A DNA stretch of 45,307 bases, from contig CAVYAN010000029.1 in assembly GCA_963766075.1 (NCBI GenBank), forward strand, positions 1-45,307. The letters are read 5' to 3'. How positions within the stretch are numbered: the stretch's first letter is position 1; each line of letters starts with the position of its first letter. Made by a program: the position numbers and the translations under genes. The stretch comes from an uncultured cyanobacterium (GTDB lineage Bacteria; Cyanobacteriota; Cyanobacteriia; Leptolyngbyales; Leptolyngbyaceae). Positions 7,337-45,307 of the stretch are shown here, piece by piece. The notes beneath the pieces are model-generated. The model was not told where the DNA came from. It saw only the letters and a program-made list of their open reading frames with translations, and made no database searches.

Positions 7337-7367
7337 GATAGTGTTCTAGACATGGGGATTGATGCAG

Positions 7368-7563: not shown

Positions 7564-7565
7564 TA

Positions 7566-10116: not shown

Positions 10117-10126
10117 TGAACCTATC

Positions 10127-11826: not shown

Positions 11827-11833
11827 ACCTATC

Positions 11834-12613: not shown

Positions 12614-12661
12614 CTGTTAACTTCTCAGACATCCTCTAAGCCTGCGGCACGCTCAGCGAAC

Positions 12662-13190: not shown

Positions 13191-13377
13191 CGCTGTCGTT
13201 TAGGAATGATCTAACTGATTCAAGTAGTCCTATTTTCCCTGATCCCTATCCCCATGTCTAGAACACTACCAGCCGCTGCTTGGTCGGTCAGCGCTAGCAA
13301 CTCCTCCCGCATCATGCCCATCCCCGCTCGATAGTGGTTTCATTTTGGCAGAGGGGGGGGAGAAATGGCGCGGGGGA

Positions 13378-15844: not shown

Positions 15845-16951
15845 GTGAGTGAGATTCTTGTGGATGCAAAGTTTTTTAGCAGTCGAACGTTAAATCTGTC
15901 GGGCACCCTCTTATTTATCATCTTGGTTTTGGGTGTCTCGATCGCCGCCCTGTCCCTAGACTTTTCTGCAGGGCGCACTCTGGTTCAAGGATTTTCCCTA
16001 ACCCTGCCGCTTTGGGTTTGTGCCCTGGCCACCGCTGGCGTAGGCTGTTGGGCTGTCCCCGCGCTACAAGCCCTGAAGGCTGGACAAATTATTCGGGAAG
16101 ATGGCCCCCAAGCCCACCTCAAAAAAGCGGGAACGCCAACCATGGGGGGCATTTTTTTATTGCCTCCGGCAGTGCTGATTGCTCTGGTTTGGTCGGGGTT
16201 TGCTCCCGATGTGGTGGCTGTATCGATGTTGACGTTGGCCTACGGTGCGATCGGCTTTGCGGATGATTGGCAAATTATTCGGCGCAAGTCCAATAAAGGC
16301 ATTTCCCCCCGGATGAAGTTGGGTCTACAGATTGGCTTTGCGGCTCTGTTCTGCCTGTGGTTAATGGCAACACAACCCGCCAGTATTACAGTTGTGGCCT
16401 TGCCCTTAGGATTGATGCTGCCCTTGGGCATGCTGTTTTGGGGTCTGGCGGCCTTCGTGCTAGTGTCCGAAAGTAACGCCACCAACTTAACCGATGGTTT
16501 GGATGGTCTGGCCGGAGGTACCGTGGCGATCGCCCTTTTAGGATTGGGTGCCATCATTTCACCGACCCATCCTGACCTCGCCTTGTTCTGTGCCTGCGTC
16601 AGCGGTAGTTGCCTTGGCTTTCTGGCTCACAATCGCAATCCCGCTCGGGTTTTCATGGGCGACACTGGATCTCTGGGGCTAGGTGGCGCACTGGGCGCGG
16701 TTGCTTTACTCAGTAACAGCTTGTTTGCCCTGATGATTTTGAGTGCCCTGTTCATCTGGGAAACCGTATCGGTGATTATTCAAGTCACCTACTTTAAGGC
16801 AACAAAGGGGCCAGACGGCGTTGGCAAGCGCTTCTTCAAAATGTCCCCTTTTCACAATCATTTGGAACTCTCCGGGTGGAATGAAACTCGGATCGTTGCA
16901 TTTTTCTACCTGATTGCCGGGTCGCTGGCCTGGTTGGCGATCGCCCTCTAA
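15845..16951 (+). CDS. mraY: Phospho-N-acetylmuramoyl-pentapeptide transferase
   Basis: HLKKAGTPTMGG, NATNLTDGLDGL, VFMGDTGSL, PFHNHLE; start may be slightly later. Confidence 0.97.
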   Translation: MSEILVDAKFFSSRTLNLSGTLLFIILVLGVSIAALSLDFSAGRTLVQGFSLTLPLWVCALATAGVGCWAVPALQALKAGQIIREDGPQAHLKKAGTPTMGGIFLLPPAVLIALVWSGFAPDVVAVSMLTLAYGAIGFADDWQIIRRKSNKGISPRMKLGLQIGFAALFCLWLMATQPASITVVALPLGLMLPLGMLFWGLAAFVLVSESNATNLTDGLDGLAGGTVAIALLGLGAIISPTHPDLALFCACVSGSCLGFLAHNRNPARVFMGDTGSLGLGGALGAVALLSNSLFALMILSALFIWETVSVIIQVTYFKATKGPDGVGKRFFKMSPFHNHLELSGWNETRIVAFFYLIAGSLAWLAIAL

Positions 16952-17141
16952 AAGCAATCCACGTTCCCTTCTGATGCCTGCCTGTTTTCAGGACTGGCAC
17001 AATTTCAGAGAAGTTCCTGGGGCGTAGTCACTATGCCCCAGTTTTGATCTAAGGATAGAACCCGAACCCGTTTTTCTAAAAAGTCTGCTCCTTGAGCGTG
17101 CCTAGACAGAAAAGATCTGCTATCATTATTGTCCAGCGCTT

Positions 17142-17231
17142 GGAGAGGTGGCTGAGTGGTCGAAAGCGGCAGATTGCTAATCTGTTGTACGGTCTTGAAC
17201 CGTACCGAGGGTTCGAATCCCTCCCTCTCCG
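17142..17231 (+). tRNA. tRNA-Ser (GCT)
   Basis: GGAGAGG acceptor stem, anticodon arm GCAGA-TT-GCT-AA-TCTGT, long variable arm, GGTTCGAATCC. Confidence 0.97.
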
Positions 17232-17629
17232 TTTTGACAAATGGACTCATAGTCTCTGAATGCATAGTCTATAGCTATACAGCTCATAGCTGTGATTAGC
17301 AGAATGAGTCTACCGGGAATGCAGTGCGCCTCAAGTCTGAATTCCAGCTGAAGTGTGCAAACCTTCTATCGGTCAGTAAAGCCCATTTCGCTACCTGGCC
17401 GATTTGTTGTAGGGATTTTCCTGGAAATGCCCCTGCCGCGAACAAGTCGTTTCGGTGGGTAGTGTCACAATGCGCGTGGTGTCATGATGGGGAGCGCATT
17501 GATTCGCAAGCCCCGGATCAGCCCATTGGTTTCAGCAATTCGCCCGACTCCGTGAGAAGCCTGCCTAAATTCCCTGGATTTTCGGAATCAAAGCTATTCT
17601 GAATGCTGTTGCTTACTCGTTGACTTCCT

Positions 17630-19616: not shown

Positions 19617-21454
19617 ATGAATCGAGAATTTGACTTTATGCCAGAGTTGCCGATGGAAGAGCCTCCCCAGGTTGGCACTATCCCGGGAAGCCCCAAGGCC
19701 GATCGCACCACGGCCCCCCAGTTTTTCTATCAGGTGGCGATGCCGGAGCCGGAGTCGCACCTGTTTGAGGTCACGCTGCGAGTGACGGGATGGCCCGAAA
19801 ACCTGTTAGATCTGAAAATGCCTGTGTGGACACCGGGTTCTTACTTAGTGCGGGAGTATGCGCGGCACCTCCAAGATTTTGCCGCCTTTGCTGGGACGAC
19901 AGCCTTGCCGTGGAGCAAAGTCAGTAAGCATCATTGGCAAATTCACACCCAAGGCAATACCGACCTGACCATTACCTACCGGATGTTTGCCAATGAGTTA
20001 ACCGTGCGGACCAACCATTTGGATAGCACCCACGGATACTTTAATGGCGCAGCAATTTTCTTTTTTGTTCCAGAATATGAAGATTGCCCGATCGATTTGG
20101 CGATCGCTCCCCCCGCCCCAACTGGCAGGTCGCCACAGCCCTCCCTGCTCTGCCGGGACAGGTAAACCACTTTCGAGCTGGAAACTTCGACACCTTAGTA
20201 GACAGTCCAGTAGAGATTGGCACGCATCAGCGCTACCCCTTTGACGTTTTGGGAAAGCACCACGAACTGGTCGTGTGGGGCACAGGCAATTACCAGGTGC
20301 AGCAGCTCATTCCCGACATTCAAAAAATCATTGCCGTGGAAGCGGACTTGTTTGGCGGACTGCCCTACGATCGCTACTTATTTCTGCTGCATTTGGCAGG
20401 GCAGGGCTTTGGTGGATTGGAACATAAGGATTCCTGCTCGTTAATTTACCAGCGGTTCAGTTTTCGCAGCCCAGACAAATACAATCGCTTTATGCAATTG
20501 GTCGCCCACGAGTTCTTTCACCTGTGGAATGTGAAACGAATTCGGCCTCAGGCCCTGGAAGTATTTGACTATGAGCAGGAAAATTACACGCCGTCACTGT
20601 GGTTTTGTGAGGGCACAACCAGCTATTACGATTTGGTGCTGCCGCTACGGGCTGGAATTTACAATGTGCCGATCTATCTAGCCGCCCTCAGCCAGGAAAT
20701 TTCTCGGTTCTTAACGACACCGGGGCGCAAGGTGCAGCCCTTAGGAGAATCCAGCTTTGATGCCTGGATCAAGCTCTATCGACCCGATGCCAACAGTCCT
20801 AATTCTCAAATGTCCTACTACCTCAAGGGCGAAATGGTGTCGCTGCTGCTGGACTTGTTAATTCGGGAGCGATCGGGAAATCGGCGATCGCTGGATGCCG
20901 CTATGCGCCAGATGTGGCACCAGTTCGGCAAGTCCGAAATTGGCTATACGCCAGAACAGTTACAGCAGGTGCTGGAATCCGTGGCAGAAATCGACCTGAC
21001 TGATTTTCTCAGCCGCTATCTGGAAACCACGGAGGAATTGCCTTTTGATGACTATCTCGCCCCCTTTGGCCTCCGTCTGAAGCCTGAAGGGGTGGAGAAT
21101 GGCGTGCCCACCCTAGGCATAACGGTCAAAACGGAATCTGGGCGAGAGATGATTAAGTTTGTAGAGCGGGGGTCTCCGGCACAGCGCGGTGGCCTGGATC
21201 CAGGGGACGAACTGCTGGCAATCAATGGCATTCGGGTCAGCACTGAGCAATTGTCAGAACGTCTGCGAGACTTCAAACCTGGAGACACGCTCCAGGTGAC
21301 TTTCTTTCACCAGGATGAGCTGCGATCGCGCGTCTTGACCCTCACGCCACCTCAGCCCACGCATTATCGCCTAGTGCCCGTGGCCTATCCAACTGGGGAT
21401 CAAGAGCGTAACTTTGTGGGTTGGCTTGGGACATCACTGTCCGAGTTGGCATAG
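19617..21454 (+). CDS. M61 metallopeptidase with PDZ domain; frameshift at C6 run 20109-20114
   Basis: PVWTPGSY in the first ORF; GGLEH, AHEFFHLWNVKR and a PDZ domain in the second; one extra C joins them. Confidence 0.88.
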
Positions 21455-29600: not shown

Positions 29601-29901
29601 CTTTCGCAGGACGATCGGGCGTGGCAATAACGGCGATCGCCAGATTGGTAAAGAGCAGTTGAAAGGCAAAGGCCATCACCACACCGACCACCAGCGCCAG
29701 CAAAAACTTAGCCCCTGAAAATAGCATGGCCGGGTCAGCGATCGGCAATTGCCCCGCAACTGGGCTAGATATTATAGTTGCAGCCCCACTCTCCAAGGTG
29801 CCAAAGACAAAAGTTGTGGTGATTACAACCACTCCGGTTAAACTCATTGTGAGTATAAAATTACGAATCTTGCGAAGTGAAATCATCTTTATTGACTCCA
29901 A
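26641..29901 (-). CDS. 1086-aa membrane-anchored protein with about 7 helical repeats of roughly 100 aa
   Basis: N-terminal TM helices, repeated ELNPEGI.RD...DP...FDR.TLV.LLSQR.D, C-terminal TM helix. Confidence 0.85.
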   Translation of the reverse strand: MESIKMISLRKIRNFILTMSLTGVVVITTTFVFGTLESGAATIISSPVAGQLPIADPAMLFSGAKFLLALVVGVVMAFAFQLLFTNLAIAVIATPDRPAKESDSENLGETIRGIETKVGLGLLLSVSIALFVASFLAVKLSLVGSPTLGAIIGVIIWAIFFTLLTWFGSTALGSLLGSIISTATTGVQGLLGTGSAMLGANIAKSQIVATAEEITAAVRRELTAGFDPDSIRTTLQSSLDKVQLPSLNLDKLGGQFEKLLKDADVGAIADSDLLKNVNRDTFVQLVSSRTDLSKRDVNRITDQLEAAWKQVVNSKEPLDPQALIQQLKSAAPQDLQSGKLNDQLSQLVKTAANQGTAGDTSLTSRALQFGTTALLSRVLQNVDLSDVDVEKIGGQLRTFGSQLLQSNGGSNSQPNGKPSSQSTGQSNGKPSDEESNGKSSGKSVAPPKPFSIIQADLENYLLLSPSWKLNRETVKQEFRDVIYDAAADPGMIRQELASIDRNYFVQVLSLRDDFTPETIQDLAGYLEPIRAEVLATVQAAESQQQSQDLRHRVEQYLRSTGKAELNPEAIGRDFQTLLEDPEVGLDALGDRLNQFDRNTLTQLLSQRGDMSSNEVEQIVVQLESTRDRVLSQAQALQEQIQGQAQALRQKVSDYLRNTHKEELNPEGIQRDLKTLFEDPEAGLSALRVRLSQFDRDTLVQLLSQRQDLSEEQINQVLDQVEAVRDTILHAPQKLAGKAKAQYEQTTQALSDYLRNTHLEELNPEGIQRDLKTLLSDPKAGTEALQERWAHVDRETLVKLLSQRDDLTEEQVNQTIDQVQSALRTAIKAPRRLANRVQKQAIDFESNLETYLKNTNKAELNPEGIKRDLQLLLQDPRAGLRSLGDRAAHFDRATFVALLAQRDDMTEAEANRIADQLESSFKAVVDQIQQVQQAVQSTIDKGFDSIRTYLNQLERPELNYDGIKQDFGTLFNDPQLGLEALRDRLTQFDRDTLVAVLSSREDISAADANRIINQVEAARDGVLHQVERVQQETQRRLAAIKQATQKQVRETRKVAAGAAWWVFSSALFSLAASAIAGFLAVSRLAIL

Positions 29902-30798: not shown

Positions 30799-31120
30799 GC
30801 TTAATTCTTTGAATTCATTTTTCCCATCTTAGTAGTAACCCAATGATTAAGCATCCTCCAAAAGAGTTAATCATCAGGATGTAACTAGCGGGGTTGCCAC
30901 AGCGCTGTTTTATTCTAAATCTCCACATTTTGTGAATATACGAGAATAAGCCGTTCTAGGCTTCAGGAATTTGAGCCTTCGATGGCTGCAACCGCCTGAA
31001 CGGGTTGCCTAAAGCTAGAAAAAACCCTGACTAAACATGAGGTGTCTTGGGCGATCGCTTTTGATTAAATCCCTTTTTTATAAAAGAGATTTAAATCGAT
31101 AAAAAGCTTCCATCGTATTC

Positions 31121-31894
31121 TCATAGTGCAGTCAATGATTTAATCAGTTCCGCAGACAGATCGGGTTTTAGTTCATGGCGTTTTCTAAACAGAACGCCTG
31201 CCAGAATGTAAATATTTTGAGAGTAGAAAGCTTTTCCATGCTTGCGAAGTTGGGCGATTCTCCACTTCACCTTGGGTTCAGAACTGTAGTATCCAAAACT
31301 CATTGGAGATGTAATAAAATCATCCACTTGATAGCCTTGATTAATTGCATACTCAATGGTCCCAACTGGATCAGAATAGGCGGAAATCATTAGCATAGCG
31401 CTCTCGTAACCCACCGCTAGAAGCTGCTTTGTGATGGCCGAGCCATCAGTTCCCCCATGCAAGTCGGGGATGTACAGATCATTATTGATTGCTGGTAGAT
31501 AAGGTGGATTAGCAATCAAGTAAGTTTCCTTAGATTGGTCGCCTTGCTCAAAATCCCCTTGCTCAAAAAAGGACGTGTTGTGAATCACGTATTTATGGCT
31601 AAGGCGATGATATTCAATTCGCGATCGAGCAACTTCACATGCTTTAGAATTCAATTCATAGCCATTAATTAGGCCATTAAATTGATTCTTTAATAAGCTA
31701 TTGATCACCGGGCTGCCTTCACCTGAGCCAAACTCCACAATAGCAGTGGAATCTTTACAGATATTCAATACCATTCGGTCTAAGCATTGAGAGTAAAATA
31801 GGGATTCTTCAGGGCAAAAGAAAACTTCTTGACGACCCTGATCCGATGGATTGAGTCTAACAACGGGTTGAGGATGCGATAAAGATTGTGTCAT
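31121..31894 (-). CDS. SAM-dependent methyltransferase (left copy)
   Basis: VEFGSGEG motif I; ANPPY N-methyltransferase-type motif. Confidence 0.85.
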   Translation of the reverse strand: MTQSLSHPQPVVRLNPSDQGRQEVFFCPEESLFYSQCLDRMVLNICKDSTAIVEFGSGEGSPVINSLLKNQFNGLINGYELNSKACEVARSRIEYHRLSHKYVIHNTSFFEQGDFEQGDQSKETYLIANPPYLPAINNDLYIPDLHGGTDGSAITKQLLAVGYESAMLMISAYSDPVGTIEYAINQGYQVDDFITSPMSFGYYSSEPKVKWRIAQLRKHGKAFYSQNIYILAGVLFRKRHELKPDLSAELIKSLTAL

Positions 31895-31923
31895 GTCACG
31901 CTCATCGATTACGGGTTAGGCGA

Positions 31924-32671
31924 TTACTGTTTGGTAAATATCCATTCCACACTTTTAACTGGGGCTTGCTTAAAAGCCATTGTCAAGGCATCATCGCTTT
32001 CACATTTCAGTTGCGATAAATGGGCGGAATCGACATTCACTGGTACATTAATCTGTTTCAAAGGGTCAAGGATGGAGTTAAATGTCGATTTTCTACCTGA
32101 TGGATATTGTAGCGCTGCTGGTCGATAAGGGGCAATTTCCAAGACTCTGGCCATCTTCAGGGACTTGCTGCTGGGCCAGAATTAGGGATAGACGATGGCA
32201 TTAAGTGCATAACTAGTGCATAAACTGACAGCTGCGTTCGCATCATCCTGTGTCACACCCTATCCCTGTCGCCACTGCTCTTGATTCTGTACTTGAGTCT
32301 CTAAAAAAATGTGCGAATTTTGGAGAGATTTTTATTATTCTGACCCAGAAAAAGCATGCATAGAGGTCAATAAGGCACCCACCGACTACTGCGATAACGC
32401 GAATCCTCAATGTGCTTTTTGAGCGCGTTTAACGATTCGTCAGGCGACGATTTTGAGAGGGTAAAGTTGTTTAGGGGTGCGCCACTTTCAGTTAAGTGAC
32501 TCCCTTTCCATTCTTTCTCTAGATCATCATGATGCGAAATTGCAGCCAACGTTTCGTGAAGGAGATCGGGAGCATTCGTCCGGTGCCAGTGCCCGCCAAT
32601 TGGGCTGCAAGTAGTGCATGGGCGCGATGGTAGATCACATCGCATCCATCTTGAGTCAGATTGATGATCAT
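31924..32671 (-). pseudogene. DUF3891-like protein, degraded (left copy)
   Basis: HRAHALLAAQL, AISHHDD, GAPL.F fragments in several frames. Confidence 0.65.
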
Positions 32672-32684
32672 AGATTTTATCTGA

Positions 32685-33773
32685 TTAAGAGCGGGAACGT
32701 TGAATAAGTGCAATAACGGCAGCCGCAGCGCGATCGCCGATCAATTTTTCTTGGTCGTAGCCGAGGACTAATTCCCAAGCCTGATCGGGATACTGCTCGG
32801 CCAACGGGAAGGCAACCTCTGTGAGCATCCACTGCCCATGGCGTTCATCTTCCCGGATGTGCAATTCCCAATAGCCCATGGCAGCCTCGGAAAGGTGTAA
32901 GCGTTCTGCGGCCATTCGGTAGTCTGTGTAAATGGCTGGCCCAGCGATTTCAAAATACGTCAAGCCACCGTTGTAGCGCAGAAAATGGCGTCTGCGTTCA
33001 GTCAATAAGAAGTTGTGGTTGATGCTAGCCAAGACTTGCCAGGGTACCTGGTCGAAATAGGCTTCTGGCTCCGTCTTGAGACCTAATTCCGCCATCATCT
33101 GGGCAAAGAACGTGGAGTGCTTGCGCGCCAGCCGACCATTGCCATATTCTTCCAGCAATACCCGAATTAAGGTGGCTTGAATTTCGTTACTGGCACCGCC
33201 CAAAATGCGAGAAAGGCGACTCGCTTCAACGAGGCCATCCAAGGAGGCGATCGCTAAGAGCAATCGATAGCCCTCCAAGCTCATGTCTTCTCGTAGATAG
33301 CGTTTTGTCTTCGATATCGGCGGATTTAAGTCTAGATCAGCACGTTCCTGCAAAGCGGGTTTAACCCCTAAATTCTGGATTTTTTCAACCTCCAGTTGGG
33401 TCAATTCCCAAGCCTGCCAGACCGACTCAATGCGATCGCGGACCCCCGCCACGTAAAAAGATCGCTCATTGGTATATTCTTCTAGAGCGTCGTACCAAAA
33501 TAAATTCAGCCGATTAATCCGATACAGCAACCGCTGTAAAAATTGGTTGGCTGGCTCAATCTGTGGATTTTCAGTGTACGCCTCGCTTAAGGCCAAGGCG
33601 AGACAGGCTTCAAAACTACTGATTAGTTCAGGATATTTTTTGACCTGCATGTCTAAATCTTCCAACATGAGCAATGCATTGAATTGCTGTTCTGCCTCTT
33701 CATAGCTGTAGTGTGGATCACCAGAACGGATCACTCCAGGCAATGAAGTATCGAGTCGGGTCTGAATTAGCAT
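32685..33773 (-). CDS. Heme-oxygenase-like diiron (iron-containing redox) enzyme, intact left copy
   Basis: EEYGNG...KHS, YFE, HIREDERH metal-ligand pattern. Confidence 0.85.
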   Translation of the reverse strand: MLIQTRLDTSLPGVIRSGDPHYSYEEAEQQFNALLMLEDLDMQVKKYPELISSFEACLALALSEAYTENPQIEPANQFLQRLLYRINRLNLFWYDALEEYTNERSFYVAGVRDRIESVWQAWELTQLEVEKIQNLGVKPALQERADLDLNPPISKTKRYLREDMSLEGYRLLLAIASLDGLVEASRLSRILGGASNEIQATLIRVLLEEYGNGRLARKHSTFFAQMMAELGLKTEPEAYFDQVPWQVLASINHNFLLTERRRHFLRYNGGLTYFEIAGPAIYTDYRMAAERLHLSEAAMGYWELHIREDERHGQWMLTEVAFPLAEQYPDQAWELVLGYDQEKLIGDRAAAAVIALIQRSRS

Positions 33774-33832
33774 GGTCCATTACCAGGTTTTGGAGAACAG
33801 AGTTATGAATGGCACTTTGGTAATAAGCGCGT

Positions 33833-35380
33833 TTATAGGGCATGCACCGTCAAGTCTTTAACGGCTGGGCCATCCAGCACTGCACCATCGCAGTCGAAAC
33901 GGGAACCGTGACACGGGCAATCCCAACTTTTTTCAGCACTGTTCCAGGCCACAATGCAGCCCAAGTGAGGACACACCGCAGAAACAGCGTGAACTGCGCC
34001 CTGCTCATCCCGATAGGCCGCTAGCTTTTCTCCTTCTATCGTCACGAGCTTGCCTTCACCTACGCCCACATCGGAAAAGTCTGGCGTAGCCAATCCTTTC
34101 AGGCGATCGCCCACCCAATGCATCCCCACGCTCACCGTTTGCTGAACGCCGCCGGGAGTCATAAACGGGGTCGCCCGCGTTGCGTCATACAAAGCAGCCC
34201 AAGGATTCTCGATGCCCAAGATTGAATCTGAGAGTAGCATTCCAGACAAGGTTCCGTTCGTCATCCCCCACAGGCTAAACCCAGTAGCCACAAAAACATG
34301 ATGGCTAAACGGCGTAAGCTTACCAATGTAGGGCAGTTGGTCAAAGGACACCATATCCTGGGTTGACCAGCGATAGTCAAACGTATCTAAGCCAAAACGC
34401 GCCCGCGCAAAGTCCTCGACCTTTTGGTATTGGGCTTCAGTATCAGTAACCTCGCCCACCTTATGCCCGCCGCCCCCGACGAGCAACAGTAGCCCATCGC
34501 GATCAGGCGTTGTCCGAATCGAGAAATAGCCCTGGCCACTGCCAATAAACATGCCTTCGGGAGCGCGATCAGGATCAATACGTGCCCCAACCATATAAGA
34601 CCGCTTGGGATGGGTTTTAGCGAAAAACAGGCCACTGTCCAAAATAGGCAGATGGGTTGTGATCACAACATCCTGGGCAGTCACGGTATGGCTATCCGTG
34701 ATCACACGGGAAGCAGTTGCTTCTTCATGCACTTTTAAGACGCGGGTCTCTTCAAACACAGCACTGCCATCACCTTGAATACACTGGGCTAAATGCAGTA
34801 AGTATTTGCGAGGATGAAATTGGGCTTGATGATCGAACCGGACCGCTCCCGCAATCGCAAAGGGCAACGACGTCTCCTGCACAAAGCTAGCGGGCAATCC
34901 CAGTTCAAGAGCGGCAGCCACCTCCGCCTCGATTTTTTTCAACCCCGATTCCGACTCCGTAAACGTATAGGCACTGCGACGGCTAAAGTCACAGTCAATC
35001 TTCTCCTCCTGCACAAAGTTAGCGATCCGTTCTAGGGCAGCCTGATTGGATTCGGCATAGACTCGCGCTTTGTTGGAGCCCAGATTGTGGAGCAGATCCG
35101 CGTAAATCAATTGATGCAGAGAGGTAACTTTAGCGGTTGTATGACCGCTTGCGCCTGTGACGATTTTTCTGGATTCAAGCACAGCTACTGTTTTGCCTGC
35201 TCTTTTCAGCAGCATGGCAGCCGTAAGCCCCGCAATGCCACCACCAACAATGGCCACATCGACAACAACATCCTGCGTCAGGCGGGGAAACTTCGTTTCG
35301 GGAGTTGAGTCAATCCAAAAGGAAATGGGTTTCCCCGTTAAAGCATGCATGGGTATTTTCGAGGGATTGAGATAGGACAA
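33833..35380 (-). CDS. FAD-dependent oxidoreductase with C-terminal Rieske domain (YhfW-like), left copy
   Basis: GGGIAG; CPHLGC...WDCPCHGSRF. Confidence 0.92.
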   Translation of the reverse strand: MSYLNPSKIPMHALTGKPISFWIDSTPETKFPRLTQDVVVDVAIVGGGIAGLTAAMLLKRAGKTVAVLESRKIVTGASGHTTAKVTSLHQLIYADLLHNLGSNKARVYAESNQAALERIANFVQEEKIDCDFSRRSAYTFTESESGLKKIEAEVAAALELGLPASFVQETSLPFAIAGAVRFDHQAQFHPRKYLLHLAQCIQGDGSAVFEETRVLKVHEEATASRVITDSHTVTAQDVVITTHLPILDSGLFFAKTHPKRSYMVGARIDPDRAPEGMFIGSGQGYFSIRTTPDRDGLLLLVGGGGHKVGEVTDTEAQYQKVEDFARARFGLDTFDYRWSTQDMVSFDQLPYIGKLTPFSHHVFVATGFSLWGMTNGTLSGMLLSDSILGIENPWAALYDATRATPFMTPGGVQQTVSVGMHWVGDRLKGLATPDFSDVGVGEGKLVTIEGEKLAAYRDEQGAVHAVSAVCPHLGCIVAWNSAEKSWDCPCHGSRFDCDGAVLDGPAVKDLTVHAL

Positions 35381-35416
35381 CTAAGATGGGGTAATTGAGA
35401 TTCGGTTTAGCCTCAC

Positions 35417-36095
35417 TTAATCGCGATCGGCATAGCCAACTTTAGGATGACGAAAACCAGCAACCGATCCGATTAAAGCCGCACCCAAGCCAAAGAGAGA
35501 CCCCAGCACAAACGACCAACTGACTTTGGCAGCATTGCCTGCTAAATCGCGGGTTTGTTGGGCTGTGATACTAGGAACATTGCTGGGAATAGTTTGAGGC
35601 GTTGTGGTGCCGGGAACATTTCCTGGAGCCGCAGTCCCAGGGATGACTTGCGGGGCCTGATTGATCAAGCTGCCCGCGTTAGCCGCCGCCACACCAAAGG
35701 CTCCGGTCACACCACTGGACAGCAACCAAGCGCTCAGCGTCAACATGGATGCCCACAAAATCGCCCCATTCAATAGCGTTATATTCCGGCTGATGCGGCC
35801 AGAGGTCCGGGCGACGATCCAACCGCCTACAAACAGTGACACTAGTAAACTAATGATGGCCCGAATACCAATGTTGATGCCCACACCAAGGAGCTTCAGA
35901 ACGCGGGGCCTCCGAGCCGCCGATGCTGGACAGTCCGATCGCCGCACCCAAGGCACTCAAGACGAGCTGCGTGCTCAAGGCGACTACCAGTCCCGCCACA
36001 ATCGGTCCCCACCGGACTTGATCATGGTAGTTGGCTACGGTCACAGCCGTTGTGCGATTGCCCGTATAGTCAAGGGGTCTGTTCAAAGATGTCAT
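35417..36095 (-). pseudogene. Membrane protein, left copy frameshifted near 35888
   Basis: Mirror of 40092-40769 with one extra base. Confidence 0.75.
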
Positions 36096-36168
36096 GATAA
36101 TCCTCCAAAAATTGTAATGAGAACGTAATCTGTGATTGTGTAAGCCAACGCTAAACGCCAATGGATAG

Positions 36169-36549
36169 TCACTCTTTTGAGTCATTACCCAGCTTGGAAA
36201 ACTTCTTCTCGAGCTTCTTTAATTCCTGCTCGGAATCATCTTCCACATCGATAATTTCATAATGGGCAGAATCAATGGCTCGGATCAGTTCATCTAATTT
36301 GATTTGCACCGCTTTGGCATCCCGATTTTGCGAGTTCTGAATGAGGAAGACCATCAAAAATGTCACAATGGTTGTTCCAGTATTAATGACCAATTGCCAC
36401 GTATCAGAAAACTTAAAAATCGGACCTGTGATTGCCCAAATAATAATCACAGTGACAGCCAAAATCGACGCTAAGGGAGAGCCGACCGCTTCAGAAGTCC
36501 TGCGAGCTAGCTTGTAGAATAAGCCTTGGTGTGGGCGCTGGTTTCGCAC
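36169..36549 (-). CDS. Low-affinity iron permease (Fet4-like), left copy
   Basis: FSDTWQLVINTGTTIVTFLMVFLIQNSQNRD..A.Q.KLDELI. Confidence 0.9.
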   Translation of the reverse strand: MRNQRPHQGLFYKLARRTSEAVGSPLASILAVTVIIIWAITGPIFKFSDTWQLVINTGTTIVTFLMVFLIQNSQNRDAKAVQIKLDELIRAIDSAHYEIIDVEDDSEQELKKLEKKFSKLGNDSKE

Positions 36550-36582
36550 TAAATTAGATTTCCTTAGAAAAAATGAGCCTTT

Positions 36583-36780
36583 TTATTCACCCACGGGTAC
36601 AACCATTCCGGGCATGGGAGCCGTATCCGGTTCAAAGTCAGTCTTTTTAGCACCACAAGTGGGGCATACCCAATCATCAGGCAGTGCTTCAAAGGGCAGG
36701 CCAGGGGCAATGCCCGAATCTGGATCGCCAACCGTGGGATCGTAAACATGCCCACACACTTTGCAGATATACTTTTGCAT
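36583..36780 (-). CDS. Rubredoxin, left copy
   Basis: [12 protein letters not shown]...[11 protein letters not shown]. Confidence 0.95.
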
Positions 36781-36860
36781 TTTTGATTCCTAGAGGCTAT
36801 CGGGTAAGGGGCAGCCGTCAGAGCATGGACGTCCATGCTCTAACAGGCATGAATCGGTGA

Positions 36861-37205
36861 TTACTCGCTCTTCATTTTTTTGAGTGCCTTTTCAGCTTGC
36901 TTAACGACGGGCAGTTCCGCGTTGTTCAGAACGCTTCATTTTTTCACTGTCGGCGTTCCCTTGTACTTCATTCAATTTTCCCTTGGAGCGCTCTACGACG
37001 GCTTCCAGCGACATTGGTGGAGAATCAATGGCCTCCTGAGTCTTTTGTTCAATCTTGTCTAGCTGAAATAGTTCCTTTAGTGGGGCACTACTTAGCGCAA
37101 AAGCTGGAAAACCACTCGCAAAAAACAGCACCGTAGCGAGCACCTAAATAATAACAACTTTTTCAAAAACTCAAGCGAGAGAGCCACGCAGAAACATATT
37201 TTCAT
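36861..37205 (-). pseudogene. Secreted hypothetical protein, left copy with several indels
   Basis: Mirror of 38985-39326. Confidence 0.7.
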
Positions 37206-37299
37206 ATCAAAATCCTCTGAAATAATAAACTACAAAATTTACGCATGCACGGTTCACAGACTATGCTCACGCAGGAGGTTTATATTATGATTTAGAGAT

Positions 37300-37566
37300 T
37301 TAGGCGCTGCGACTAGACAGTAAGCCACAGAAAAATTGCGATGATCGCGCCCAAAACGGCGATAAACACACCGGGAATGCTCAAACCGGGTGCAGCCAAT
37401 CGCAATGTCCCTGTTTGCAGGAACGTGTGCAAAGAGCCGCCAATAAAAGCACCAACAACACCTAACACCATCGTTGAAAGCCAACCTCCGCCTTGATGGC
37501 CGGGGACAATGGCCTTGGCGATCGCCCAGTAGCAACCCCAAAAATTATCCAAGCAATGATGTTCAT
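37300..37566 (-). pseudogene. GlsB/YeaQ/YmgE-family membrane protein, left copy with indels
   Basis: Mirror of 38619-38888. Confidence 0.75.
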
Positions 37567-37814
37567 GGCCCGTTCCTCGTAATTTGATGACCTTAGTAAC
37601 CTATCAGTCACACACCCGAGTTCTCTTCTCTCAAAGGGATGAACTGTCGGTATCCAGTGGGGCATCAATAGAGGGAGGCTAAGCACAAAGCCGTTCTCTA
37701 TTCATGACATTCAGTCACACTCAATCTATTGATTTCTAGAAAATACTTAGGTCATCGTCCAGGTCATATTAACCCAGCAAGGGTTGTTCAGGTACCGGGT
37801 TATCCTGCGGGAGG

Positions 37815-37927
37815 CAGCTACGACTACGCTTAACCCTCATTGTCCCAGTGGGCTTAAGCGTAGTTCCGGCTGAGCGTAGTTCCGGCTGAGCGTAGTTCCA
37901 GTGGGCTGAGCGTAGCCGAAGCCCACG
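37815..37927. repeat. Cluster of short repeats (GGCTGAGCGTAGTTCC units), left copy
   Basis: Three or four tandem units ending in GGGCTGAGCGTAGCCGAAGCCC. Confidence 0.8.
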
Positions 37928-38261
37928 ACAGACTACCAATGCCAGATCTTTGTTTGCCAAGTGAATAGCCGGGGTGAAAATCCGCTTCACAAGTGAGATA
38001 ACGTTCTGAGTTGCCAATAAAAATTTTCCGCCATCAAGCCACCTGCCCCCTTGCAATCAGAGTGGCAGACACGGGGTTGATTTCGGGTATGAATTGATTA
38101 CCCGAAATCAACCCCGTGTCTGCCACTCTGATTGCAAGGGGGCAGGTGGCTTGATGGCGGAAAATTTTTATTGGCAACTCAGAACGTTATCTCGCTTGTG
38201 AAGCGGATTTTCACCCCGGCTATTCACTTGGCAAACAAAGATCTGGCATTGGTAGCCTGTC

Positions 38262-38372
38262 GTGGGCTTCGACTACGCTCAGCCCACTGGAACTAGCTCA
38301 CCGGAACTACGCTCAGCCGGAACTACGCTTAAGCCCACTGGGACAATGAGGGTTGAGCGTAGTCGTAGCTGC
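38262..38372. repeat. Cluster of short repeats, right copy
   Basis: GGGCTTCGACTACGCTCAGCCC and GGAACTACGCTCAGCC units. Confidence 0.8.
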
Positions 38373-38618
38373 CTCCCGCAGGATAACCCGGTACATGAAC
38401 AACCCTTGCTGGGTTAATATGACCTGGACGATGACCTAAGTATTTTCTAGAAATCAATAGATTTGGTGTGACTGAATGTCATGAATAGAGAACGGCTTTG
38501 TGCTTAGCCTCCCTCTATTGATGCCCACTGGATACCGACAGTTCATCCCTTTGAGAGAAGAGAACTCGGGTGTGTGACTGATAGGTTACTAAGGTCATCA
38601 AATTACGAGGAACGGGCC

Positions 38619-38888
38619 ATGAACATCATTGCTTGGATAATTTTGGGGTTGCTAGCTGGGGCGATCGCCAAGGCCATTGTCCCCGGCCATCAAGGCGGAG
38701 GTTGGCTTTCAACGATGGTGTTAGGTGTTGTGGGTGCTTTTATTGGCGGCTCTTTGCACACGTTATTGCAGACAGGGACGTTGCAATTAGCTGCACCCGG
38801 TTTGAGCATTCCCGGTGTGTTTATCGCCGTTTTGGGCGCGATCATCGCAATTTTTCTGTATGGCTTACTGTCTAGTCGCAGCGCCTAA
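38619..38888 (+). CDS. GlsB/YeaQ/YmgE-family stress-response membrane protein
   Basis: MNIIAWIILGLLAGAIAKAIVPG...LGVVGAFIGG. Confidence 0.9.
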   Translation: MNIIAWIILGLLAGAIAKAIVPGHQGGGWLSTMVLGVVGAFIGGSLHTLLQTGTLQLAAPGLSIPGVFIAVLGAIIAIFLYGLLSSRSA

Positions 38889-38984
38889 ATCTGCCTAAAT
38901 CGTAGTCTGTGAACCATGCATGAGCATAGTCTGTGAACCGTGCATGCGTAAATTTTGTAGTTTATTATTTCAGAGGATTTTGAT

Positions 38985-39326
38985 ATGAAATATGTTTCTG
39001 CGTGGCTCTCTCGCTTGAGTTTTGAAAAAGTACTTCTGTCTACGGTGCTCGCTACGGTGCTATTTTTTGCGAGTGGCTTTCCAGCCTTTGCCGCTAAGAG
39101 TGCTCCCACTAAAGGAACTGTTCAGCTAGACAAGATTGAACAAAAGACCCAGGAGGCAATTGATTCTCCACCGATGTCGCTGGAAGCCGTCGTAGAGCGC
39201 TCCAAGGGAAAATTGAATGAAGTGCAAGGGAACGCCGACAGTGAAAAAATGAAGCGTTCTGACAACGCGGAACTGCCCGTCGTTAAGCAAGCTGAAAAGG
39301 CACTCAAAAAAATGAAGAGCGAGTAA
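38985..39326 (+). CDS. Secreted hypothetical protein
   Basis: Signal peptide ending PAFA; LNEVQG.AD.EKM motif; GAGG RBS. Confidence 0.75.
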   Translation: MKYVSAWLSRLSFEKVLLSTVLATVLFFASGFPAFAAKSAPTKGTVQLDKIEQKTQEAIDSPPMSLEAVVERSKGKLNEVQGNADSEKMKRSDNAELPVVKQAEKALKKMKSE

Positions 39327-39406
39327 TCACCGATTCATGCCCGTTAGAGCATGGACGTCCATGCTCTAACGGCTGCCCCTTACCCGATAGCCTCTAGGAA
39401 TCAAAA

Positions 39407-39604
39407 ATGCAAAAGTATATCTGCAAAGTGTGTGGGCATGTTTACGATCCCACGGTTGGCGATCCAGATTCGGGCATTGCCCCTGGCCTGCCCTTTGAAG
39501 CACTGCCTGATGATTGGGTATGCCCCACTTGTGGTGCTAAAAAAACTGACTTTGAACCGGATACGGCTCCCATGCCCGGAATGGTTGTACCCGTGGGTGA
39601 ATAA
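39407..39604 (+). CDS. Rubredoxin, right copy
   Basis: Two CxxCG motifs. Confidence 0.95.
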
Positions 39605-39637
39605 AAAGGCTCATTTTTTCTAAGGAAATCTAATTTA

Positions 39638-40018
39638 GTGCGAAACCAGCGCCCACACCAAGGCTTATTCTACAAGCTAGCTCGCAGGACTTCTGAAGCG
39701 GTCGGCTCTCCCTTAGCGTCGATTTTGGCTGTCACTGTGATTATTATTTGGGCAATCACAGGTCCGATTTTTAAGTTTTCTGATACGTGGCAATTGGTCA
39801 TTAATACTGGAACAACCATTGTGACATTTTTGATGGTCTTCCTCATTCAGAATTCGCAAAATCGGGATGCCAAAGCGGTGCAAATCAAGTTAGATGAACT
39901 GATCCGAGCCATTGATTCTGCCCATGATGAAATTATCGATGTGGAAGATGATTCCGAGCAGGAATTAAAGAAGCTCGAGAAGAAGTTTTCCAAGCTGGGT
40001 AATAACTCAAGAGAGTGA
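39638..40018 (+). CDS. Low-affinity iron permease (Fet4-like), right copy
   Basis: Same motif as the left copy. Confidence 0.9.
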   Translation: MRNQRPHQGLFYKLARRTSEAVGSPLASILAVTVIIIWAITGPIFKFSDTWQLVINTGTTIVTFLMVFLIQNSQNRDAKAVQIKLDELIRAIDSAHDEIIDVEDDSEQELKKLEKKFSKLGNNSRE

Positions 40019-40091
40019 CTATCCATTTAGGTTTAGCGTTGGCTTACGCAATCACAGATTACGTTCTCATTACAATTTTTGGAGGATTATC

Positions 40092-40769
40092 ATGACATCT
40101 TTGAACAGACCCCTTGACTATACGGGCGATCGCACAACGGCTGTGACCGTAGCCAACTACCATGATCAAGTCCGGTGGGGACCGATTGTGGCGGGACTGG
40201 TAGTCGCCTTGAGCACGCAGCTCGTCTTGAGTGCCTTGGGTGCGGCGATCGGACTGTCCAGCATCGGCGGCTCGGAGGCCCCGCGTTCTGAAGCTCCTGG
40301 TGTGGGCATCAACATTGGTATTTGGGCCATCATTAGTTTACTAGTGTCACTGTTTGTAGGCGGTTGGATCGTCGCCCGGACCTCTGGCCGCATCAGCCGG
40401 AATATAACGCTATTGAATGGGGCGATTTTGTGGGCATCCATGTTGACGCTGAGCGCTTGGTTGCTGTCCAGTGGTGTGACCGGAGCCTTTGGTGTGGCGG
40501 CGGCTAACGCGGGCAGCTTGATCAATCAGGCCCCGCAAGTCATCCCTGGGACTGCGGCTCCAGGAAATGTTCCCGGCACCACAACGCCTCAAACTATTCC
40601 CAGCACTGTTCCTAGTATCACAGCCCAACAAACCCGCGATTTAGCAGGCAATGCTGCCAAAGTCAGTTGGTCGTTTGTGCTGGGGTCTCTCTTTGGCTTG
40701 GGTGCGGCTTTAATCGGATCGGTTGCTGGTTTTCGTCATCCTAAAGTTGGCTATGCCGATCGCGATTAA
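40092..40769 (+). CDS. Multi-pass membrane protein
   Basis: 225 aa, VRWGPIVAG, four or five hydrophobic helices; GGAGG RBS. Confidence 0.8.
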   Translation: MTSLNRPLDYTGDRTTAVTVANYHDQVRWGPIVAGLVVALSTQLVLSALGAAIGLSSIGGSEAPRSEAPGVGINIGIWAIISLLVSLFVGGWIVARTSGRISRNITLLNGAILWASMLTLSAWLLSSGVTGAFGVAAANAGSLINQAPQVIPGTAAPGNVPGTTTPQTIPSTVPSITAQQTRDLAGNAAKVSWSFVLGSLFGLGAALIGSVAGFRHPKVGYADRD

Positions 40770-40805
40770 GTGAGGCTAAACCGAATCTCAATTACCCCAT
40801 CTTAG

Positions 40806-42353
40806 TTGTCCTATCTCAATCCCTCGAAAATACCCATGCATGCTTTAACGGGGAAACCCATTTCCTTTTGGATTGACTCAACTCCCGAAACGAAGTTTCC
40901 CCGCCTGACGCAGGATGTTGTTGTCGATGTGGCCATTGTTGGTGGTGGCATTGCGGGGCTTACGGCTGCCATGCTGCTGAAAAGAGCAGGCAAAACAGTA
41001 GCTGTGCTTGAATCCAGAAAAATCGTCACAGGCGCAAGCGGTCATACAACCGCTAAAGTTACCTCTCTGCATCAATTGATTTACGCGGATCTGCTCCACA
41101 ATCTGGGCTCCAACAAAGCGCGAGTCTATGCCGAATCCAATCAGGCTGCCCTAGAACGGATCGCTAACTTTGTGCAGGAGGAGAAGATTGACTGTGACTT
41201 TAGCCGTCGCAGTGCCTATACGTTTACGGAGTCGGAATCGGGGTTGAAAAAAATTGAGGCGGAGGTGGCTGCCGCTCTTGAACTGGGATTGCCCGCTAGC
41301 TTTGTGCAGGAGACGTCGTTGCCCTTTGCGATCGCGGGAGCCGTCCGGTTCGATCATCAAGCCCAATTTCATCCCCGTAAATACTTACTGCATTTAGCCC
41401 AGTGTATTCAAGGCGATGGCAGTGCTGTGTTTGAAGAGACTCGCGTTTTAAAAGTGGATGAAGAAACAACTGCTTGCCGCGTGATCACGGATAGCCATAC
41501 AGTGACTGCCCAGGATGTTGTGATCACAACCCATCTGCCCATTTTGGACAGTGGCCTGTTTTTCGCCAAGACCCATCCCAAGCGGTCTTACCTGGTGGGG
41601 GCACGTATTGATCCCGATCGCGCCCCCGAAGGCATGTTTATTGGCAGTGGCCAGGGCTATTTCTCGATTCGGACAACGCCTGACCGCGATGGGCTACTGT
41701 TGCTCGTCGGGGGCGGCGGGCATAAGGTGGGCGAGGTTACTGATACCGAAGCACAATACCAAAAGGTCGAGGACTTTGCGCGGGCGCGTTTTGGCTTAGA
41801 TACGTTTGACTATCGCTGGTCAACCCAGGATATGGTGTCCTTTGACCAACTGCCCTACATTGGTAAGCTTACGCCGTTTAGCCATCATGTTTTTGTGGCT
41901 ACTGGGTTTAGCCTGTGGGGGATGACGAACGGAACCTTGTCTGGAATGCTACTTTCAGATTCAATCTTGGGCATCGAGAATCCTTGGGCTGCTTTGTATG
42001 ACGCAACGCGGGCGACCCCGTTTATGACTCCCGGCGGCGTTCAGCAAACGGTGAGCGTGGGGATGCATTGGGTGGGCGATCGCCTGAAAGGATTGGCTAC
42101 GCCAGACTTTTCCGATGTGGGCGTAGGTGAAGGCAAGCTCGTGACGATAGAAGGAGAAAAGCTAGCGGCCTATCGGGATGAGCAGGGCGCAGTTCACGCT
42201 GTTTCTGCGGTGTGTCCTCACTTGGGCTGCATTGTGGCCTGGAACAGTGCTGAAAAAAGTTGGGATTGCCCGTGTCACGGTTCCCGTTTCGACTGCGATG
42301 GTGCAGTGCTGGATGGCCCAGCCGTTAAAGACTTGACGGTGCATGCCCTATAA
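40806..42353 (+). CDS. FAD-dependent oxidoreductase with Rieske domain, right copy
   Basis: Same motifs; four amino-acid differences from the left copy. Confidence 0.92.
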   Translation: MSYLNPSKIPMHALTGKPISFWIDSTPETKFPRLTQDVVVDVAIVGGGIAGLTAAMLLKRAGKTVAVLESRKIVTGASGHTTAKVTSLHQLIYADLLHNLGSNKARVYAESNQAALERIANFVQEEKIDCDFSRRSAYTFTESESGLKKIEAEVAAALELGLPASFVQETSLPFAIAGAVRFDHQAQFHPRKYLLHLAQCIQGDGSAVFEETRVLKVDEETTACRVITDSHTVTAQDVVITTHLPILDSGLFFAKTHPKRSYLVGARIDPDRAPEGMFIGSGQGYFSIRTTPDRDGLLLLVGGGGHKVGEVTDTEAQYQKVEDFARARFGLDTFDYRWSTQDMVSFDQLPYIGKLTPFSHHVFVATGFSLWGMTNGTLSGMLLSDSILGIENPWAALYDATRATPFMTPGGVQQTVSVGMHWVGDRLKGLATPDFSDVGVGEGKLVTIEGEKLAAYRDEQGAVHAVSAVCPHLGCIVAWNSAEKSWDCPCHGSRFDCDGAVLDGPAVKDLTVHAL

Positions 42354-42412
42354 ACGCGCTTATTACCAAAGTGCCATTCATAACTCTGTTCTCCAAAACC
42401 TGGTAATGGACC

Positions 42413-43500
42413 ATGCTAATTCAGACCCGACTGAGACTTCATTGCCTGGAGTGATCCGTTCTGGTGATCCACACTACAGCTATGAAGAGGCAGAACAGCA
42501 ATTCAATGCATTGCTCATGTTGGAAGATTTAGACATGCAGGTCAAAAAATATCCTGAACTAATCAGTAGTTTTGAAGCCTGTCTCGCCTTGGCCTTAAGC
42601 GAGGCGTACACTGAAAATCCACAGATTGAGCCAGCCAACCAATTTTTACAGCGGTTGCTGTATCGGATTAATCGGCTGAATTTATTTTGGTACGACGCTC
42701 TAGAAGAATATACCAATGAGCGATCTTTTTACGTGGCGGGGGTCCGCGATCGGCATTGAGTCGGTCTGGCAGGCTTGGGAATTGACCCAACTGGAGGTTG
42801 AAAAAATCCGAATTTAGGGGTTAAACCCGCTTTGCAGGAACGTGCTGATCTAGACTTAAATCCGCCGATATTGAAGACAAAACGCTATCTACGAGAAGAC
42901 ATGAGCTTGGAGGGCTATCGATTGCTCTTAGCGATCGCCTCCTTGGATGGCCTCGTTGAAGCGAGTCGCCTTTCTCGCATTTTGGGCGGTGCCAGTAACG
43001 AAATTCAAGCCACTTTAATTCGGGTATTGCTGGAAGAATATGGCAATGGTCGGCTGGCGCGCAAGCACTCCACATTCTTTGCCCAAATGATGGCGGAATT
43101 AGGTCTCAAGACGGAGCCAGAAGCCTATTTCGACCAGGTACCCTGGCAAGTCTTGGCTAGCATCAACCACAACTTCTTATTGACTGAACGCAGACGCCAT
43201 TTTCTGCGCTACAACGGTGGCTTGACGTATTTTGAAATCGCTGGGCCAGCCATTTACACAGACTACCGAATGGCCGCAGAACGCTTACACCTTTCCGAGG
43301 CTGCCATGGGCTATTGGGAATTGCACATCCGGGAAGATGAACGCCATGGGCAGTGGATGCTCACAGAGGTTGCCTTCCCGTTGGCCGAGCAGTATCCCGA
43401 TCAGGCTTGGGAATTAGTCCTCGGCTACGACCAAGAAAAATTGATCGGCGATCGTGCTGCGGCTGCCGTTATTGCGCTTATTCAACGTTCCCGCTCTTAA
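42413..43500 (+). pseudogene. Heme-oxygenase-like diiron enzyme, right copy with frameshifts
   Basis: Single-base indels near 42433, 42752 and 42810 relative to the left copy. Confidence 0.8.
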
Positions 43501-43513
43501 TCAGATAAAATCT

Positions 43514-44262
43514 ATGATCATCAATCTGACTCAAGATGGATGCGATGTGATCTACCATCGCGCCCCTGCATTACTTGCAGCCCAGTTGGGTGGGCACTGG
43601 CAGCGCACTAATGCTCCCGATCTCCTTCACGAAACGTTGGCTGCAATTTCTCATCATGATGATCTAGAGAAAGAATGGAAAGGGAGTCACTTAAGTAAAA
43701 GTGGCGCACCCTAAACAACTTTACCCTCTCAAAATCGTCGCCTGACGAATCGTTAAACGCGCTCAAAAAGCACATTGAGGATTCGCGTTATCGCAGTAGT
43801 CGGTGGGGTGCCTTATTGACCTCTATGCATGCTTTTTCTGGGTCAGAATAATAAAAATCTCTCCGAAGATTGGCGGATTTTTTTAGAGACTCAAGTACAG
43901 AATCAAGAGCAGTGGCGACTGAATAGGGTGTGACACAGGATGATGCGGAACGCAGCTGTCAGTTTATGCACTAGTTATGCACTAGTGCGATCGCCTATCC
44001 CTAATTCTGGCCCAGCAGCAAGTCCCTGAAGATGGCCGAGTCTTGGAAATTGCCCCTTCGATCGACCAGCAGCGCTACGATCTGCGTCAGGTAGAAAATG
44101 GACGTTTAACTCCATCCTTGACCCTTTGAAACAGATGAATTTACCGTGAATGTCGATTCCGCCCATTTATCGCAACTGAAATGTGAAAGCGATGATGCCT
44201 TAACAATAGCTCTTAAGCAAGCCTCAGTTAAAAGTGTGGAATGGACATTCACCAAACAATAA
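43514..44262 (+). pseudogene. DUF3891-like protein, degraded (right copy)
   Basis: Stop at 43712-43714; 11-bp duplication TTATGCACTAG at 43964-43985. Confidence 0.65.
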
Positions 44263-44291
44263 TCGCCTAACCCGTAATCGATGAGCGTGAC

Positions 44292-45065
44292 ATGAAACAA
44301 TCTTTATCGCATCTTCAACCCGTCGTTAGACTCAATCCATCGGATCAGGGTCGTCAAGAAGTTTTCTTTTGCCCTGAAAAATCCCTATTTTACTCTCAAT
44401 GCTTAGACCGAATGGTATTGAATATCTGTAAAGATTCCACTGCTATTGTGGAGTTTGGCTCAGGTGAAGGCAGCCCGGTGATCAATAGCTTATTAAAGAA
44501 TCAATTTAATGGCCTAATTAATGGCTATGAATTGAATTCTAAAGCATGTGAAGTTGCTCGATCGCGAATTGAATATCATCGCCTTAGCCATAAATACGTG
44601 ATTCACAACACGTCCTTTTTTGAGCAAGGGGATTTTGAGCAAGGCGACCAATCTAAGGAAACTTACTTGATTGCTAATCCACCTTATCTACCAGCAATCA
44701 ATAATGATCTGTACATCCCCGACTTGCATGGGGGAACTGATGGCTCGGCCATCACAAAGCAGCTTCTAGCGGTGGGTTACGAGAGCGCTATGCTAATGAT
44801 TTCCGCCTATTCTGATCCAGTTGGGACCATTGAGTATGCAATTAATCAAGGCTATCAAGTGGATGATTTTATTACATCTCCAATGAGTTTTGGATACTAC
44901 AGTTCTGAACCCAAGGTGAAGTGGAGAATCGCCCAACTTCGCAAGCATGGAAAAGCTTTCTACTCTCAAAATATTTACATTCTGGCAGGCGTTCTGTTTA
45001 GAAAACGCCATGAACTAAAACCCGATCTGTCTGCGGAACTGATTAAATCATTGACTGCACTATGA
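44292..45065 (+). CDS. SAM-dependent methyltransferase (right copy)
   Basis: EFGSGEG, ANPPY; three amino-acid differences from the left copy. Confidence 0.85.
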   Translation: MKQSLSHLQPVVRLNPSDQGRQEVFFCPEKSLFYSQCLDRMVLNICKDSTAIVEFGSGEGSPVINSLLKNQFNGLINGYELNSKACEVARSRIEYHRLSHKYVIHNTSFFEQGDFEQGDQSKETYLIANPPYLPAINNDLYIPDLHGGTDGSAITKQLLAVGYESAMLMISAYSDPVGTIEYAINQGYQVDDFITSPMSFGYYSSEPKVKWRIAQLRKHGKAFYSQNIYILAGVLFRKRHELKPDLSAELIKSLTAL

Positions 45066-45307
45066 GAATACGATGGAAGCTTTTTATCGATTTAAATCTC
45101 TTTTATAAAAAAGGGATTTAATCAAAAGCGATCTCCCAAGACACCTCATGTTTAGTCAGGGGGTTTTTTAGCTTTAGGCAACCCGTTCAGGCGGTTGCAG
45201 CCATCGAGGGTTCAAATTCTGAAGCCTAGAACGGCTTATTCTCGTATATTCACAAAATGTCGAGATTTAGAATAAAACAGCGCTGTAAACCCCGCTAGTT
45301 ACATCCT

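Follow-up and report, generated by a model that had tools for sequence, protein, structure and literature searches.

The window analysed here is an entire contig of 45,307 nt (CAVYAN010000029.1, contig C29 of draft genome G000), and its right-hand end is taken up by a long palindrome whose second arm therefore reaches the contig end. A self-BLAST returns a single long reverse match, 30876-45307 against 45307-30876 at 97.665% identity, which confirms the mirror coordinates that had first been read from the letters. For this mirror the original prediction offered three explanations: a hairpin end of a linear replicon, a fold-back chimera, or a genuine inverted duplication. The arms are separated by a 9-nt spacer, TGAATTGAT, and pair exactly for 95 bp on each side of the apex. 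Across the 5.05-Mb assembly, no other pair of exact inverted arms around a loop of 12 nt or less exceeds 26 bp, so this pairing is not due to chance. The apex is intergenic, falls short of a perfect palindrome by two edits or fewer, and is preceded by 30 nt with an A+T content of 43%. No unique DNA lies beyond the right arm; the mirror stops only where the contig does.

The assembly comprises 126 contigs, with a completeness of 84.9% and a contamination of 1.7%. A word that we take to be the HIP1 motif occurs 6932 times (vs. 100 expected), which is a cyanobacterial signal, and a PAP-fibrillin gene is a second cyanobacterial marker. The comparison set consisted of 40 relatives, none of the same genus. 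Exact-pattern scans with the apex in metagenome, genome and viral contigs found no second copy, a result that is uninformative either way as near-identical genomes were possibly left out, and the apex sequence overlaps no contig end in the assembly.

Genes on the arms are of the stress type (Table 1), encoding a heme-oxygenase-like enzyme, an FAD/Rieske oxidoreductase, a low-affinity iron permease, a DUF3891 protein and a transglycosylase-associated protein, the last from the recognisable gene closest to the apex. Among the arm open reading frames (ORFs) scanned against families there are no transposases, recombinases or resolvases, and the original prediction was right that the first two are missing from the apex.

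Table 1. Features of the window. Positions are those of the 45,307-nt contig; the matching stretch of the other arm, where available, is in parentheses.
Feature	Position	Strand	Evidence and remarks
Left arm	30876..38089	.	Likely the real chromosomal copy, part of a general-stress cluster with genes on the minus strand; unique DNA adjoins on the left; homologues in relatives
Spacer at turn, 9 nt	38090..38098	+	Likely native continuation of the left arm; covered by record 6 of short-read run X1
Right arm	38099..45307	.	Second copy in reverse complement, ending with the contig; likely the half made by fold-back
Dispersed short repeat	37767..37966	.	About 120 bp before the apex; copies inside C5, C40, C59 and C72, so not specific to contig ends
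DUF3891 gene	31950..32690	-	PF13030 fragment; frameshifted in both arms (three-frame translation)
Iron-containing redox enzyme (heme-oxygenase-like), 362 aa	32685..33773 (right 42343-43500 +)	-	PF14518; whole on left, 138 + 222 aa on right
FAD-dependent oxidoreductase with Rieske domain, 515 aa	33833..35380 (mirror 40806-42353 +)	-	PF01266, PF00355; intact in both arms
Strain-like divergence block	34433..34933 (mirror 41255-41753)	-	About 500 bp, about 4.6% mostly synonymous divergence, flanked by identical sequence
Low-affinity iron permease family gene	36169..36549 (mirror 39638-40018 +)	-	PF04120
Transglycosylase-associated small membrane protein	38574..38888	+	PF04226; residues 1-89 of 89 on right, 15-80 on left; broken on left
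Conserved 113-aa protein	38985..39326	+	Residues 1-112 of 115 align on right, 21-93 on left; broken on left
Conserved 225-aa protein	40092..40769 (left 35417-36185 -)	+	blastx to relatives; whole on right, two frames on left
mraY	15845..16951	+	PF00953 and PF10555 (MraY signature); chromosomal core gene
tRNA-Ser(GCT)	17141..17232	+	ARAGORN

The palindrome had been called near-perfect, but a divergence of 2.3% separates its arms; it is concentrated in blocks, and each arm has frameshifts. In a global alignment they share 7065 of 7232 columns (97.69%), with 126 substitutions and 35 insertion or deletion (indel) events, 29 of them single-base and 16 of the 35 within homopolymers. Frame breaks are reciprocal: by blastx to relatives, each arm disrupts genes that are whole in the other, and the DUF3891 gene is broken in both. 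The differences are confined to sharply bounded blocks, with stretches of 478-754 bp between them that are identical, and no tie to fixed 500-bp polishing windows was established for these blocks. Between the arms, the FAD/Rieske gene has 25 changed codons, 21 of them synonymous and 24 of the 25 inside the block at 34433-34933, whereas random error would predict a synonymous share of 0.24-0.35 (P at most 5e-7 for this gene). For seven arm ORFs together, 35 of 55 changed codons are synonymous. Sequencing error alone was rejected as the source of the arm differences on the synonymous excess in the FAD/Rieske gene. The block probably represents an allele introduced by recombination that is still segregating among the cells sampled. 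These cells were probably a mixture of strains at thin coverage, with their reads shared out between both copies in polishing. Strain-mixed polishing alone cannot separate an artefact from a true hairpin. Differences near CGATCG are clustered and occupy 12 of 167 columns (vs. 3.9 expected), a weak hint of methylation-linked miscalls in native DNA that was not used to exclude amplification.

A public short-read run (X1; word share 0.05, 7 of 30 bins covered) bears on whether the DNA goes on beyond the turn. Nine of its records were aligned to the window; six fell below 90% identity and were set aside, leaving the three at 95-99%. Record 8 matches the right-arm copy of the 225-aa gene without a gap. 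Record 6 (151 nt, depth 3) matches 38010-38099, spacer included, over its letters 62-151 with one mismatch and no gap. The 61 letters before that stretch do not match the mirror, and no joint was reported. In a near-identical genome, therefore, the spacer is native and the DNA runs on into other sequence. The spacer as a miscalled perfect palindrome was set aside, since this record covers it gap-free. Adapter read-through seems an unlikely origin of the 61 loose letters, as a shared adapter should break a graph contig within about 30 letters and the record has full read length. Two observations had been named beforehand as speaking against a real end, namely few reads at the turn while others pass the apex into unique DNA, and relatives that carry the cluster once and internally. 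The first is seen in part, in record 6, which goes on into non-mirror sequence but does not come from the source reads.

The second is partly borne out. Long inverted repeats are missing from all 12 cluster loci compared in relatives, and in G004 and G039, both from other genera, genes of the cluster are found well inside contigs of 7.3 Mb and 5.5 Mb, respectively. For 8 of 31 loci (7 of 25 genomes), genes that neighbour the cluster in relatives hit G000 best at the free 5′ end of contig C22, and the next best of 250 contig ends reaches 3; the loci had been selected through matches to C29, with a single overlapping one excluded. At the start of C22 lies a dispersed repeat of 1.1 kb (91% identical to C17), followed by genes for CsbD, a YflT/ChaB protein, a Dps-like ferritin, an amylase and a hemerythrin-domain protein. 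All of these point towards the contig start and are thus co-oriented with the minus-strand cluster of the left arm. In all three loci most similar to the transglycosylase-associated gene (73-81% identity), Dps stands upstream on the same strand, and in G026 and G036 it does so at about 0.6 kb from that gene. Neither a mirror nor the apex sequence was found at the C22 start. Gene order thus suggests that the chromosome likely continues past the turn into the rest of the stress-gene cluster at the start of C22.

The same assembly retains fold-backs at unrelated places. Self-mirrors of at least 300 bp that touch a contig end were found in three of the 126 contigs, namely C29, C70 (88.2%) and C110 (91.8%). 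The unpaired junctions of C70 and C110 measure about 23 and 30 nt, respectively, and no sequence common to the junctions of the three contigs is evident. In C110 the turn falls within a kinase-like frame, presumably a Ser/Thr kinase by its glycine-loop motif; a few more native codons follow in the 30-nt junction before the mirror begins. This layout, native bases and then mirror, appears to be the same as in C29. In the C70 arms, substitutions increase towards the turn with no synonymous bias (34 vs. 73).

Two other mirrors were not counted as fold-backs. Contig C62 (L058:6641-20000) has a 5.4-kb mirror at 98.2% with a 4.2-kb spacer, entered via a repeat shared with C9 (the inverted repeat at the entry matches C9 at 87-88%), and is either a misjoin through this repeat or an invertible segment. 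Contig C77 (L059:1-3097) has a terminal mirror at 88-91% with a short spacer and synonymous-rich arms. As one frame has mostly synonymous change (52 vs. 21), paralogues or strains are involved.

Telomere resolvases were searched for in G000, as the original prediction had proposed, and none was found. PF16684 gave no match while the positive control matched, which at 84.9% completeness is no proof of absence; tblastn of G000 with 11 resolvase frames from relatives reached a best E of 0.075, and a profile search a best E of 0.43. PF16684 matches are present in 16 of 61 genomes searched, including 10 of 36 of the same family. Of the stretches around relatives' resolvase matches, 2 of 20 contain a long mirror and 18 of 20 do not. 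Several of the relatives' matches sit right at a contig end or no more than about 8 kb away from one (G058:C1, G026:C34, G024:C103, G013:C423, G014:C110 and G013:C452), which is as expected for telomere-linked genes.

Mirrored resolvase ends in two relatives served as positive controls. In G003:C54 (L023:1-17482), a 17,482-bp palindrome with 100% identical arms and zero spacer runs to the contig start; it is likely a real cyanobacterial hairpin telomere, with the resolvase about 1 kb from an AT-rich axis. In G060:C1 (L024:7106-13276, about 2,113,190), a mirror of about 6.2 kb has 3.08-kb arms (99.95%) and a 1-nt centre. There, an 876-aa telomere-resolvase-family gene is mirrored about an axis of 80-85% A+T inside a 4.68-Mb contig, with unique DNA on both sides. 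This is likely a linear chromosome's two resolvase-bearing ends joined at the hairpin in assembly, or else an unresolved telomere junction. The control resolvases are 0.3-1.1 kb away from their axes, and the 30 nt before the axis are 80% A+T in both. The C29 apex differs from them in its spacer (9 nt vs. 0 and 1), its A+T content (43% vs. 80% and 80%) and its arm identity (97.7% vs. at least 99.95%). It thus has neither the perfect or near-perfect palindromic axis of a protelomerase site nor an AT-rich site with a resolvase gene nearby, none being present among the arm ORFs. Resolvase proximity to the telomere is not universal in the family, as Agrobacterium TelA illustrates. The arm ORFs also contain no TnsB/TnsC/TniQ operon with a transposon end beside a hairpin, the arrangement of PAST elements. 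A genome-wide TniQ search gave no match, but its control was also silent and the search is therefore uninformative.

Taken together, we consider it very probable that the mirror at the end of C29 is a fold-back artefact of the ordinary long-read kind, and we are correspondingly confident that it is not a real feature of the genome. Of the explanations first proposed, the fold-back chimera is the one supported, by the other terminal fold-backs, the run-on record, the synteny with C22, the missing resolvase and the reciprocal frame breaks; the hairpin end is not, given no resolvase, an apex unlike the controls, a record that runs on and a candidate continuation on C22.

Fold-back reads make up about 0.55-0.6% of nanopore genomic libraries (PMC12870357) and can tangle assemblies (PMC12870357; Heinz, Meyerson and Li). 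In the parts of that study available to us, artefact reads have a second segment on the opposite strand, at the same place and within 200 bp, and hardly any bases, if any, are left unaligned where they turn; those with more than 11 unaligned bases there are typically under half. The C29 mirror resembles these in its opposite-strand return with a gap of 9 nt, which a real hairpin would show too. It is unlike them in that the study deals with human and mouse reads and here we have a consensus contig. Long-read metagenome assemblers are known to produce false duplications, frame-breaking indels and haplotyping errors (10.1101/2025.04.22.649783). The C29 case shares with those described within-contig duplication in a short contig, frame-breaking indels and subpopulation variants in one contig. 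As far as the accessible text goes, that preprint stresses direct repeats, does not single out terminal palindromes and uses read clipping as its test. Nanopore accuracy is also reduced in inverted duplicates (PMC7229812), much like the garbled stretches with missed bases in the C29 arms and the increase of substitutions towards the turn in C70. The inverted duplications described in the available portion of that study are real, and the accuracy effect cannot tell a real from an artefactual junction.

We propose that a fragment broke near 38099 and that its strands were joined or read in tandem, so that a read would follow one strand to its end and then return on its complement. One such long read, or a few, would likely have given the contig its mirror copy (7.2 kb). 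About 10 native bases would have been left single as the spacer, which a short 3′ overhang closing onto the recessed opposite strand would give. With thin coverage and the 1.1-kb dispersed repeat nearby, the assembler could have followed the fold-back read and not the true exit. Polishing may then have split the few strain-mixed reads between the copies, so that each arm would have indel errors and strain alleles of its own. Should the true divergence point be where record 6 leaves the mirror, after 38099, the turn would have 1 bp of microhomology or less. The fold of the native end is not unusual (z = +0.53 and +0.33). With so little microhomology and no fold, short-overhang end-joining or an unsplit template-complement read fits better than repeat-primed template switching. 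The sequencing platform was inferred from the error pattern and is not on record.

Several points weigh against the artefact. A single fold-back read predicts errors in the right arm only and both arms have them, so the proposed polishing split is needed to account for them. The evidence of run-on DNA is one 151-nt, depth-3 record, possibly from another strain. In a narrower upstream test of the link to C22, 15 of 23 loci lack a homologue of the C22 start upstream, several of the 8 positives depend on the multicopy CsbD, and by best hit an internal region of C96 is ahead of C22 (4 vs. 3). The join itself is inferred, as the C29 apex and C22 share no sequence overlap. The C29 apex is clean and intergenic, with its 95 exact bp per side, unlike those of C70 and C110. 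Finally, with the genome 84.9% complete, a resolvase could be missing from the assembly.

This last point leads to a rival reading, in which a linear cyanobacterial chromosome ends at the apex in a genuine, covalently closed hairpin that long reads have unfolded, with its protelomerase in the unassembled part or with an incompletely paired loop made without one. The hypothesis is reasonable, since cyanobacterial hairpin ends and protelomerases, as well as PAST elements, have been described and TelT activity has been shown in cyanobacteria (10.1101/2024.11.13.623437, as far as the accessible text goes). As with protelomerase telomeres (TelN, TelA, ResT, TelT), C29 has an inverted repeat at a contig end and belongs to a cyanobacterial family with resolvases. 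The frequency of PF16684 in the same family, the two relatives with mirrored resolvase ends, and an intergenic apex that is within two edits of a perfect palindrome and overlapped by no contig all agree with a hairpin, and strain-mixed polishing would make a true hairpin's arms differ too. We nevertheless regard it as very improbable. The resolvase is missing by three methods, and the A+T content, the 9-nt centre and the lack of a gene at the controls' distance of 0.3-1.1 kb all set the apex apart. Record 6 keeps the imperfect spacer gap-free and does not return along the mirror, and the cluster appears to continue on C22, whose start has no mirror or apex sequence. C29 differs from protelomerase and PAST systems alike in having no resolvase found, no Tn7-like arm genes, a 9-nt spacer at 43% A+T, arms at 97.7% and a candidate continuation. 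More improbable still is the specific case of a linear chromosome cut inside the stress cluster and closed by a 9-nt unpaired loop without a resolvase, while the conspecific strain behind the X1 record is uncut there.

We give similarly little credence to a recent in-vivo fold-back in some cells, in which a hairpin-capped break or a template switch gave an inverted duplication that the assembly caught while most cells stayed unrearranged. The anatomy of the junction would be identical and record 6 would then be the unrearranged allele, but microhomology of at most 1 bp, the lack of an unusual fold and the presence of SbcD, which G000 encodes, argue against it, and the two further terminal fold-backs show that the assembly retains such reads anyway. 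Long palindromes with minimal spacers are not expected to persist in SbcCD-positive cells. Hardly credible at all is an old, fixed inverted duplication with diverged arms, between which gene conversion was patchy and gene loss reciprocal. The excess of synonymous changes (35 of 55 codons) is indeed biological and not sequencing noise, and genes broken in one arm are mostly whole in the other, but the sharp blocks between identical runs, the mostly single-base and often homopolymeric indels, a mirror that runs as far as the contig does without giving way to unique DNA, the absence of long inverted repeats from relatives' cluster loci and the poor prospects of a 14-kb palindrome with a 9-nt spacer in a cell where SbcD is found all speak against it.

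Elsewhere in the window, mraY and tRNA-Ser lie about 21 kb from the apex, as the original prediction had stated. Nested insertion sequences (DDE_3, DUF6399, IS4/5-type and IS1-type) occupy 6787-13270, with copies on other contigs that are 97-99.8% identical. At 19617-21454 (+), an M61 peptidase is spread over two overlapping frames, likely a further indel error outside the palindrome. A 1086-aa protein encoded at 26641-29901 (-) has hydrophobic segments at its N-terminus and a long array of repeats of about 98 aa. No family scores above cut-off for it except Bac_DNA_binding, by a whole-protein score without a significant single stretch. Its homologue in G026 is 71% identical and adjoins the same cluster.

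A resolvase-free hairpin end 21 kb from mraY would, if true, be a fresh, resolvase-independent bacterial hairpin telomere and a new mode of cyanobacterial chromosome linearisation; the evidence is strongly to the contrary. As an artefact, the mirror matters for curation only. Contig C29 should be trimmed near 38099; about ten genes are double-counted, and several of these need the intact copy from the opposite arm. What is gained is a set of features that discriminate between such mirrors: arm identity, the A+T content and perfection of the axis, a nearby resolvase, other fold-backs in the same assembly, and synteny to a free contig end.

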